From assembly GCA_964632315.1 (NCBI GenBank), contig CAZWEM010000044.1, positions 1 to 41,750 on the forward strand: DNA of 41,750 nt, written 5' to 3'. Within the stretch, counting starts at the first letter, position 1, and each line of letters starts with the position of its first letter. The translations under genes were made by a program, and so were the position numbers. Shown piece after piece: positions 1 to 1,820 of this stretch. The notes under the pieces are model-generated. The model was not told the DNA's origin. It worked only from the letters and a program-made list of their open reading frames with translations, and did not search any database. Origin of the DNA: an uncultured archaeon. Its GTDB lineage: Archaea > Asgardarchaeota > Lokiarchaeia > Sigyniarchaeales > SOKP01.

Positions 1-262
1 TCGGCGAAGGATCCATTGACAATCCGTCCTTTACCTTTTCAGCTACAAAAGAAGTCGCTGCAGGCATGCTATTTGGCGAAGTAGAACTTGCTTAAAATCT
101 AAGCAGTGCTAAAACGCCACGAGTGCCTATATGGCAGGTGACATCACGGTCGAAGGTAACCTTCAAGACGCCATGGCCTTTCAAGAGATATGATCTGAGA
201 GTTTCTCTCGATTGACTCACATTGAACTGGCCTTGGAAGCTCTTGAAGACATGCTTGATTAA
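1..262 (+). CDS. SCP2 sterol-binding/lipid-transfer domain protein, copy A (5'-partial; spliced join(<1..84,114..190,221..262))
   Basis: Not in the ORF track. From nt 3, after removing 85..113 and 191..220, it reads GEGSIDNPSFTFSATKEVAAGMLFGEVDATSAYMAGDITVEGNLQDAMAFQEIIELALEALEDMLD*. This has the SCP2 C-terminal motif (G.vd...A.M.G.i.veG.l..A) and is collinear with copy B. Confidence 0.88.
85..113 (+). other. Putative BHB-type mRNA intron A1 (29 nt) in SCP2 copy A
   Basis: AACTTGCTTAAAATCTAAGCAGTGCTAAA is absent from copy B at the homologous codon and has an in-frame TAA at 93-95. Outer helix UGGCG(74-78)/CGCCA(115-119), central helix AAGU/GCUA (3 of 4 pairs), bulges AG|A and AA|A, internal hairpin UGCUUA-AAAUC-UAAGCA. 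Removal gives GTA G|AC GCC (V-D-A). Confidence 0.85.
131..258. repeat. 128-bp perfect inverted repeat, arm 1 (partner 1337..1464)
   Basis: 131..258 is the exact reverse complement of 1337..1464 (3' ends of the two SCP2 genes including the shared intron). Near-identity extends about 14 nt further, past the stop codon. Confidence 0.92.
191..220 (+). other. Putative BHB-type mRNA intron A2 (30 nt) in SCP2 copy A
   Basis: TGATCTGAGAGTTTCTCTCGATTGACTCAC begins with an in-frame TGA. Outer helix UUCAA(180-184)/UUGAA(222-226) extended by GGCC/GGCC, central helix GAGA/ACUC (3 of 4 pairs), bulges UA|U and AC|A, internal hairpin GAUC-U-GAGAG/CUCUC-GAUU. Removal gives QEI|IELALE. The junction could be shifted 1 nt (190..219) with the same protein. 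Confidence 0.8.
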
Positions 263-275
263 TTCAGTCTTTGAA

Positions 276-318
276 AAGAAAAGGATAAGATTTTAAACCT
301 TCTTTACATTTTTTTTTA
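276..318 (+). terminator. Probable terminator of SCP2 copy A
   Basis: Imperfect AAAGAAAAGG...CCTTCTTT hairpin followed by a 10-T run just after the stop codon. Confidence 0.45.
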
Positions 319-815
319 TCTCTACTATTTTTTAATATTATAATGAAATTAAAAAAGATTATAACTAACACAATATTAACTCGGAGGATACTCTTTCTAT
401 TAAATCTAATTTAACAACTTACTTCCTTAAACTGCGAAATATGCTGATGGATTTATTTGTAAAGATCATTTATTATTTAATTTGTTTAAACAGGATTTAT
501 TTAAATTAAAAAGGTGGGGGTTTATATATCCTCAGCAATAAAAAGTGGTAGCATAACATTATATCCAGCTCGTATCATTGTCCTCGATGCCATTTGCTTT
601 GGATCTATGAAAAACATTCCAGTATATATTGTAAGCTTAGTTTTGATTAAAAAATGATACATCTGCTGGAGAAAGAGGACATTATCGCAAATGAGGAATT
701 AAATGGCAATATTCAAACTCTGGACGATTATGGTGATGATTTCGTGTCTATGATACCCTTAATTATCGAATAGTAAAAAATTATAGTAAAAAGACATATA
801 GTAAAAAAACATTAA

Positions 816-1145
816 TTGGTATTGAAGATGGGTAAAAAAATATACAAAACCATATGGAGAAATAAATGGATTACTGCAGGAGCGAAATCCATAGATGATT
901 TCATAAACACTTTTGAGGGATTAGCAAATCATTTTCGAGAGTGGAAAGAATTAGGGATAACATTAGAAGAAGATGGCGGAGTTATAGATGATTATGCCAC
1001 ATTCTCTACTGATGATATGGATGTGGCTATTAAAGCAGGTTTTACCTTTTATTTTGGCGATAATAGAGAAAAGGAGTATCTCCTTACAATTGATGATGAA
1101 GAGATTGAAGTTCCCAAAGAAAAGCTAATGCAACACAAAAAATAA
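816..1145 (+). CDS. Hypothetical acidic protein (start may be ATG 828)
   Basis: 109-aa ORF with natural composition; no family recognised. Confidence 0.75.
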   Translation: MVLKMGKKIYKTIWRNKWITAGAKSIDDFINTFEGLANHFREWKELGITLEEDGGVIDDYATFSTDDMDVAIKAGFTFYFGDNREKEYLLTIDDEEIEVPKEKLMQHKK

Positions 1146-1332
1146 CGCTCTGAATATTTTATTCTCTTCTTTTAGTGCTCCTTTTGAAAAAGTGGATAAT
1201 TAAAATTTAACGCTTTATGCAAATCTCTGTAAATTGGTAATGATATTTGAAAATTTTAAAAAAAAATAAATTATTTCTTTTTTTCCAAGCGTATTAAGTA
1301 TTATTAGAAAAAAAAGAATTCGAAAGACTGAT

Positions 1333-1820
1333 TTAGTCAAGCATGTCTTCAAGAGCTTCCAAGGCCAGTTCAATGTGAGTCAATCGAGAGAAACTCTCAG
1401 ATCATATCTCTTGAAAGGCCATGGCGTCTTGAAGGTTACCTTCGACCGTGATGTCACCTGCCATTTACGCGATTAGCACGATTTGTTCTAATTATACGCA
1501 GAGGTGGCATCAACTTCACCGAAAAGCATTCCAGATCCAACTTCTTTCGTGGCAGAGAACGTGAAGGACGGATTGTCCACGTCGCCTTCACCGAATTCCA
1601 TGGTCCCATCATGTGCTTTAAGCCAGAACTTCTTATCGGCATCGGTGATAACCATTTGGATTACAATGTCCATGTCCTCTAACTCTTCTTTCAAGTCTTC
1701 ATTCTCTTCTGCGATCTGCTTGAAAAGCTCGAATACCTTTAAGGTATCCATTACATCAGATGCGGCAGCGCCGGCATCCATTTTTTCTTTCACTTCATTC
1801 ATTAATGCTTCGTCTACCAT
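1333..1820 (-). CDS. SCP2 sterol-binding/lipid-transfer domain protein, copy B (spliced complement(join(1333..1374,1405..1464,1494..1820)), 142 aa)
   Basis: The ORF track truncates it at ...DATSAYN* (1488). Removing 1465..1493 and 1375..1404 continues it as DATSAY-MAGDITVEGNLQDAMAFQEI-IELALEALEDMLD*, completing the SCP2 fold. Confidence 0.9.
1337..1464. repeat. 128-bp perfect inverted repeat, arm 2 (partner 131..258)
   Basis: Direct base-by-base comparison. Confidence 0.92.
1375..1404 (-). other. Putative BHB-type mRNA intron B2 (30 nt), identical to A2
   Basis: Same sequence, position and fold as 191..220; begins with an in-frame TGA. Confidence 0.8.
1465..1493 (-). other. Putative BHB-type mRNA intron B1 (29 nt) in SCP2 copy B
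   Basis: AATTAGAACAAATCGTGCTAATCGCGTAA sits between TAT and ATG, where copy A reads TAT ATG contiguously (128-133). In-frame TAG. Central helix GCGU/GCGU (2 G-C, 2 G-U), bulges AU|A and AA|A, internal hairpin AUUAG-a-AC-AAAUC-GU-g-CUAAU. The outer helix is relaxed (UGCCA/UGGCA or CACCU/AGGUG). Confidence 0.85.

Follow-up and report, generated by a model that had tools for sequence, protein, structure and literature searches.

Predicted bulge-helix-bulge mini-introns at neighbouring sites of paralogous SCP2 genes in an Asgard archaeon, and their probable common descent

How two short inserts in paralogous genes of one archaeal genome come to lie at different positions, only 17 coding nucleotides apart, and yet resemble each other is the question raised by one end of a contig from an uncultured lokiarchaeon. 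The window analysed here is the whole of this contig (C44; CAZWEM010000044.1; 41,750 nt), which belongs to a metagenome-assembled genome (MAG; assembly GCA_964632315.1; 4.45 Mb, 33% GC, 119 contigs) designated G000; G007, G016, G019, G023, G053, G057 and similar designations stand for other genomes. It carries two convergent SCP2 genes, A and B, with inserts A1 and A2 in the former and B1 and B2 in the latter. The presence or absence of these inserts was compared across 42 congeneric genomes, and the records of relatives with the same SCP2 gene are labelled Promethearchaeota (Loki-type Asgard archaea). Taken together, the sequence comparisons make it probable, though far from assured, that A1, B1 and A2/B2 are bulge-helix-bulge (BHB; tRNA-type) mini-introns in the SCP2 pre-mRNAs, whose splicing we infer, and that the introns at the A1 and B1 sites go back to a single ancestral element.

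Gene A begins on contig C67 (5′ part at C67:17121-17401, with a 55-nt overlap with the window start) and continues at 1..262 of the window on the plus strand. The 3′ end of its exon 1 (1..84) is followed by intron A1 (85..113; 29 nt), which lies in phase 1, between G and AC, and splits the Asp codon of ...GEVDATSAY. Exon 2 (114..190) reads aCGCCACGAGTGCCTAT followed by MAGDITVEGNLQDAMAFQEI, intron A2 (191..220; 30 nt) is in frame and starts with TGA, and exon 3 (221..262) reads IELALEALEDMLD and ends with the stop codon TAA at 260-262. Once the two contig parts are joined and the introns removed, gene A encodes a full-length SCP2 protein of 142 aa. Gene B occupies 1820..1333 on the minus strand, with exon 1 at 1494..1820 (109 codons; Pfam SCP2, E=3.8e-6), intron B1 at 1465..1493 (29 nt, phase 0, after the Tyr codon TAT), exon 2 at 1405..1464 (again MAGDITVEGNLQDAMAFQEI), intron B2 at 1375..1404, an identical copy of A2, and exon 3 with the stop codon at 1333..1374. 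The B1 site is 17 coding nt downstream of the A1 site. The positions, phases, 29-nt lengths and 17-nt spacing given for A1 and B1 in a first-pass annotation of the window were confirmed by direct reading and by re-extraction with a script.

Translation into any of the inserts would end at a stop codon after a few codons. When A1 or B1 was taken out, the sequence read ...GEVDATSAYMAGDITVEGN..., as it does in the third SCP2 paralogue of G000, which is uninterrupted on contig C32, and in about 50 uninterrupted orthologues from the 42 genomes; the exon junctions are fixed to within one base by the same sequences. The 17 nt between the A1 and B1 sites hold five differences between genes A and B, all of them synonymous, among them the change between AGT and TCT at a Ser codon. 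After intron removal, six interrupted SCP2 genes from four genomes all yield perfect 142-aa SCP2 proteins. Constraint at the protein level thus persists in the exons that follow the frameshifting inserts. Reading the in-frame TGA at 191 as selenocysteine, as another recoding site or as part of an alternative code was considered and rejected, as the long open reading frames (ORFs) of the window use the standard code and the orthologues, which lack the 30 nt, read FQEI↓IELALEA (↓, splice site).

The minimum-free-energy (MFE) folds of the three distinct inserts display a BHB motif, with z-scores of -2.8, -1.3 and -2.5. In A1, a 5-bp outer helix (74-78/115-119) is formed by both exons, the central helix comprises 80-82/108-110 plus an A79.A111 mismatch, the bulges are AG↓A and AA↓A, and the inner hairpin (88-94/100-106) has the loop AAAUC. 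In A2, a 5-bp outer helix (180-184/222-226) accompanies a central helix with three of four pairs and a 3′ bulge AC↓A. In B1, the central helix GCGU/GCGU includes two G-U pairs, the 5′ bulge is AU↓A, the 3′ bulge AA↓A is 4 nt in the MFE fold, and an inner helix AUUAG/CUAAU encloses AC[AAAUC]GU, so that AAAUC is the loop of the MFE hairpin in both A1 and B1. The first-pass annotation had described the 3′ segment of each insert as complementary to its own upstream exon, and this was borne out: in A1, GCUA pairs with AAGU at three of four positions, and in B1 all four positions pair.

The same geometry was found more widely. The pairing joins exon positions -6 to -3 with intron positions n-5 to n-2, so that each splice site lies two nt 3′ of the helix. 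All 13 introns tested, eight from SCP2 genes and five from the acs gene described below, have three or four of the four possible pairs in the central helix, and eight have all four; in the background drawn from the same coding sequences, the probability is 0.15 for at least three pairs and 0.018 for four. For each of these 13 introns, the predicted BHB cuts coincide with the boundaries derived from orthologue alignment. A1, A2 and B1 have the two bulges and 4-bp helix of archaeal BHB introns, B1 in a relaxed form. No group I, group II or spliceosomal features were found in these 29-30-nt inserts, which have no GT..AG at the frame-restoring boundaries, and no Rfam family matched in the window.

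The enzymes required by such a process were searched for in the genome. Two ORFs with an EndA domain (PF01974; E=2.5e-29 and 4.7e-19; about 210 aa each) lie on contigs C28 and C8 (C28:34842-35066 and C8:41146-41400), and two separate EndA ORFs would fit a two-subunit endonuclease of broad specificity. RtcB is encoded on contig C26 (E=1.3e-170). In the proposed splicing reaction, the last exon bases would base-pair with the intron's 3′ tail to form a 4-bp central helix between two small bulges, EndA would cut two nt past this helix on each strand and RtcB would join the exons; only the spliced message would then encode the complete SCP2 fold.

The acs gene of the same genome (C25:1-2000, minus strand; L042) contains six inserts relative to its orthologues, of 32, 42, 30, 30, 30 and 30 nt. 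Most orthologues lack them, G019 has three of the six and G007 has one, and in both G019 and G007 acs has an additional 32-nt insert elsewhere. At the aligned boundaries of the 42-nt insert, no BHB helix was seen. With the DNA query, no acs gene turned up in G057, G023 or G016, and that of G053 appears to be without intron 1, as judged from match length only. A genome-wide de novo scan for mini-introns, based on BHB geometry and ORF joining, was noisy and gave no peak at about 30 nt, with thresholds that would miss the known examples.

Within G000, the resemblance of A1 to B1 was then evaluated by shuffling. As reported in the first-pass annotation, both inserts are 29 nt long, start with AA, end with AA(A) and contain the AAAUC loop and the heptamer GUGCUAA. 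A shared 7-mer was reached in 1247 of 20000 shuffles (p=0.06), which is within chance, and GUGCUAA is structurally non-equivalent in the two, forming the central helix and bulge in A1 and a hairpin arm in B1. An ungapped-type local score gave p=0.035. A gapped alignment of B1 with A1 and its exon flanks matched 21 of 22 aligned bases, a result beyond chance (6 of 2000 shuffles; p=0.003); it reads AAGUAG↓AAC .. AAAUC .. GUGCUAA, with both stem arms of A1 deleted in B1. The length of about 30 nt and the A-rich ends are class features, shared by five acs introns of G000. Judged from G000 alone, the resemblance of the two introns appears weak.

A genome search for similar 29-mers or AAAUC-loop hairpins, as proposed with the original suggestion of intron mobility, returned no related copy. 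Searching the whole G000 genome, including tRNA and rRNA regions, with A1, B1, A2 and the intron of G023 by blastn-short gave chance matches inside continuous ORFs only, and hairpins with an AAAUC loop were not enriched genome-wide (ratio 0.93). The comparison with tRNA introns was made by BLAST, ARAGORN being unreliable here with only 27 tRNAs. When the 42 genomes were scanned for the shared hairpin core with up to two mismatches allowed, the counts were at or below those of the reversed-pattern control. The hairpin core is thus not a dispersed repeat in the genus, and there is no dispersed intron family in G000. As for target-site duplications, the B1 site has a repeat between exon end and intron end (GCGTAT/GCGTAA), which is attributable to the self-complementary GCGU helix; no such repeat was found at the other sites except acs intron 4, whose helix is likewise partly self-complementary.

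The relatives provided stronger evidence. The A1 site of G057 holds a 29-nt intron, identical to A1 at 22 of 29 positions (76%), with one compensatory change from C-G to U-A, and G053 has two convergent SCP2 genes, both occupied at the B1 site. The A2 site is occupied in G057 and in G023; the introns of these two genomes are identical at 28 of 30 positions, and those of G000 and G023 at 17 of 30, with the stem kept. The B1-site intron in gene 2 of G053 and the A1-site intron of G057 have in common GUUUAA[A/U]UUCUAAACA, covering stem, loop and stem with 15 of 16 positions identical, and this likeness was equalled in none of 2000 shuffles. The same G053 intron also resembles A1 of G000 (p=0.004). 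As controls, five acs introns and three A2-site introns were compared with the same targets, and all were non-significant; nor did the A2-site introns, or those found after coding nt 349 and 370 in metagenome contigs (see below), show a significant relationship to A1 or B1. This cross-site similarity in relatives, together with the non-significant controls, is the basis for proposing common descent of the A1-site and B1-site introns. The claim in the first-pass annotation that A1 and B1 are related elements thus gained support, from the relatives as well as from the gapped alignment. The description of the two as paralogue-specific holds inside G000 but not beyond it, both sites being occupied in other species.

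With an orthologue of A1 in G057 and introns at the B1 site of both G053 genes, A1 and B1 predate the species of G000. They are neither private to G000 nor recent, and the earlier proposal that they were gained independently in this genome was not supported. Presence and position were mapped, as had been recommended, on an SCP2 gene tree, complemented by a FastTree of the 5′ region, and the minimum number of changes was two for A1, three for B1 and three for A2. Close relatives of the intron-bearing genes can be without the introns, as in G016 beside G057, and this patchy distribution points to precise losses, recombinational transfer, or both.

Recombination has left a trace in the window itself. 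A perfect 128-bp inverted repeat, with arms at 131..258 and 1337..1464 and a spacer of 1.08 kb, spans exon 2, A2 and exon 3, and its upstream end falls exactly at the 3′ splice site of B1. The last 93 nt of the coding sequence (CDS) and A2 are 100% identical between genes A and B, whereas the first 306 nt are only 80-82% identical, and the 5′ regions of A and B are no closer to each other than to SCP2 genes of other species. The two arms form a recent gene-conversion tract that has copied A2 between the paralogues, and the tract ends where B1 interrupts the homology. In most congeners the two SCP2 genes stand in tandem; they are convergent in G053, as here.

Three explanations would do without splicing. 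If the inserts stayed in the message, both SCP2 genes would be decaying pseudogenes hit by small insertions, as the early stop codon in each insert and the existence of the uninterrupted third paralogue might suggest. This is very unlikely in view of the flawless proteins obtained after insert removal and the synonymous changes downstream of the frameshifts, the conservation of insert position and structure between species, and a BHB geometry at the exact boundaries that is far beyond chance; in addition, the sole acs gene found of the acs-specific family, a distant paralogue aside, carries six such inserts. Alternatively, the ribosome might skip the inserts by translational bypassing or programmed frameshifting. 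Being short, hairpin-forming, stop-containing inserts inside ORFs, they do superficially resemble bypass elements such as those of T4 gene 60 and the yeast mitochondrial byps, but matching take-off and landing codons are missing: from a take-off at GUA in A1, which splits a codon in phase 1, no usable GUN landing codon would restore ...DATSAY, and from a take-off at UAU in B1 there is no UAY before AUG. Exon ends that pair with insert tails, and bulges placed symmetrically as in the BHB structure, are moreover features of endonuclease substrates, and we consider bypassing highly improbable. An assembly artefact, with the inserts or the arrangement of genes A and B being chimeric, could be suspected from the spread of gene A over two contigs with a 55-nt overlap, from the contamination rating of the bin (8.6%) and its GC-rich contigs, and from the fact that SCP2 loci break contigs in other MAGs. 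It is scarcely conceivable, however, when homologous inserts occur at exactly the same sites in independent assemblies of other species and the inserts lie in unique sequence.

More serious is the possibility that A1 and B1 are genuine BHB introns that arose independently in neighbouring splice-permissive loops, their likeness being due to chance and to constraints of the class (a length of about 30 nt, A-rich bulges, an AU-rich hairpin and loops of the NWWUC type). The shared 7-mer, at chance level in G000 and in non-equivalent structural positions, speaks for such an origin; acs introns have the same length and A-rich ends, and the loops of several mini-introns end in UC (ACUUC, AUCUC, UAUUC). 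Asgard tRNA introns, too, have been gained repeatedly without forming sequence families (10.64898/2026.10.13.758758). We nevertheless regard independent origin as rather unlikely, given the 15/16 identity between B1-site and A1-site introns of different genomes and the failure of every acs and A2 control against the same targets. Several observations weigh against the common-descent and BHB interpretation that we prefer. The cross-site similarity rests on two A1-site and three B1-site introns, and the similarity between two of the three B1-site introns is non-significant; the proposed remnants of A-type exon flanks in B1 add only 3 to 6.5 score units. The intron in gene 1 of G053 (L082; G053:C29) resembles acs intron 1 of G000, from an unrelated gene (p of about 5e-4, 40 pairs compared); the shared sequence is AUGGARUUG...CAAUWCCAGC, and the top of the stem shows a compensatory change. 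Since an unrelated pair scores almost as high, which also favours independent origin, similarity between real introns may exceed what shuffles indicate; the likeness hints either at chance or at intron families that extend across genes. As to structure, A1 and A2 each carry one A.A mismatch in the central helix, which makes the motif a relaxed one, and B1 is without a canonical outer helix in the register that retains the universally conserved Met; moving the register on by two nt yields a 5-bp outer helix but would encode Lys. Finally, the patchy distribution was read on the gene tree, which is confounded by recombination.

Whether the region attracts introns was assessed with metagenome contigs carrying further SCP2 intron sites (L205-L207, L202, L197). 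These have introns after CDS nt 349 (31 nt), 370 (30 nt, in two contig groups) and 159 (50 nt). The inserts at nt 349 and nt 370 have three or four of four central-helix pairs at the aligned boundary; the 50-nt insert at nt 159 has three of four in shifted registers only. Across lineages, five intron sites fall between CDS nt 310 and 387, a span of 78 nt, and these results support the view that this part of the SCP2 gene collects introns and is a hotspot at the level of the gene family. The notion of a hotspot of ongoing gain therefore stands as far as the clustering of sites is concerned but not for ongoing gain in G000, where both introns are older.

The sites themselves have a distinctive structure. 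In the mature mRNA, A1 and A2 sit in hairpins with a 5-bp stem and a 7-nt loop, the junction falling between positions 6 and 7 of the loop, an arrangement that resembles an anticodon loop. Of 57 genes, 41 have the hairpin with 5 bp at A2 and 28 have it with at least 4 bp at A1; the background is 2.4%. Because these hairpins are present in most intron-less orthologues, the A1 and A2 sites would have been splice-permissive before the introns arrived.

Under common descent, an ancestral element would have moved or been copied from one hairpin loop to another at a distance of 17 nt, perhaps taking along a few exon bases from its flanks. A drift of the boundary could not produce the 17-nt shift, because 17 exon bases change sides. 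An A1-type copy may have arrived in the next hairpin loop of the paralogue and then been trimmed to the length of about 30 nt typical of G000, with different B1-site introns losing different parts; we infer the direction from A1 to B1 from the exon-like ends of B1. Both versions would since have been carried in different paralogues and species and been erased or spread by gene conversion between paralogues. Hypothetically, the route was reverse splicing plus reverse transcription, or illegitimate recombination with an intron-less paralogue or cDNA. A more general model, which we advance tentatively as possible but not probable, is that the BHB mini-introns in protein genes of Asgard archaea multiply by local copy-and-paste: an excised or mis-excised intron, still carrying a few exon bases, would re-enter a neighbouring hairpin that resembles an anticodon loop, in its own mRNA or in that of a paralogue, through the reversed EndA/RtcB reaction, reverse transcription or recombination would fix it in DNA, and gene conversion would spread or erase it.

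Several known systems are comparable. The cbf5 (pseudouridine synthase) pre-mRNA of Crenarchaeota contains a short BHB intron that is removed by the tRNA endonuclease and has a patchy history of gain and loss (Watanabe 2002; Yokobori et al. 2009, PMC2738675), and in the literature searched, endonuclease-spliced introns in archaeal protein genes are on record for essentially this gene only. Like cbf5, the SCP2 locus is a protein-coding archaeal gene with short BHB inserts that are patchy among relatives; unlike it, the SCP2 genes belong to Promethearchaeota and contain several introns per gene, all of about 30 nt, acs also has inserts, and splicing is predicted here from the sequence. In Thermoproteales, transposition of tRNA introns has yielded related introns at different positions under the constraint of the BHB motif (Sugahara 2008; Fujishima 2010, as summarised in 10.64898/2026.10.13.758758). 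Significantly similar introns at different insertion positions, the A1 and B1 sites, are the point of likeness. In contrast to the Thermoproteales families, which extend over many tRNA genes, the host here is an SCP2 mRNA, the positions are 17 nt apart in paralogues, no dispersed family was found in the genome or the genus, and the relocated copy may include exon flanks. Asgard tRNA genes show repeated recent intron gains with almost no sequence families, and the route of arrival is open (10.64898/2026.10.13.758758; PMC11291895). The SCP2 genes share with them the Asgard lineage and many lineage-specific BHB-type inserts at splice-permissive sites, but differ in that the host is a protein gene, two sites have related introns and gene conversion has spread a third.

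In eukaryotic genes, introns can slide or relocate, and they can be gained by local duplication. Related intron sequence at neighbouring but non-identical positions in paralogues recalls such cases; the SCP2 introns, however, have an enzyme-cut BHB and not a spliceosomal structure, and the 17-nt shift is impossible by boundary drift alone.

What would be new here is the mRNA host, the Asgard lineage, the presence of several mini-introns per gene, and local relocation combined with spread by conversion. The locus offers a compact series, with five intron sites in 78 nt of one small gene in related genomes, and it pairs putatively related introns at two sites with a conversion tract that has copied one intron and stops at another. 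Relocation, spread and precise loss of introns thereby become testable in relatives of the eukaryotic ancestor. If local copy-and-paste is true, it would provide, in the lineage closest to eukaryotes, a prokaryotic working model for how introns are gained, slide and are lost, and it would settle the route by which BHB introns enter Asgard genes. Annotation is affected as well, since standard gene callers will record genes of this kind as truncated or as pseudogenes.

Some further observations concern the records and the surroundings. A Loki-type SCP2 gene, 92% identical, was found on a contig labelled 'Candidatus Nanopelagicaceae bacterium' (L212; DATKTW010000035.1), and the record of G053 is labelled Hodarchaeota; both public records look mis-binned or mislabelled. 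Within the bin of G000, which has otherwise 33% GC, contigs C74, C103, C105 and C113 are GC-rich and are probably contamination. Contig breaks in or next to SCP2 paralogues occur in several MAGs, for example G054, G056 and G049, as in gene A here, and are presumably due to near-identical stretches between paralogues. Several of the intron hairpin loops end in UC, namely UAUUC in the metagenome contigs, AAAUC, AAUUC, AUUUC, ACUUC and AUCUC, and a class-wide loop preference in mini-introns is possible. Between the two SCP2 genes of the window, an ORF of 109 aa without a Pfam match lies at 816..1145 on the plus strand.

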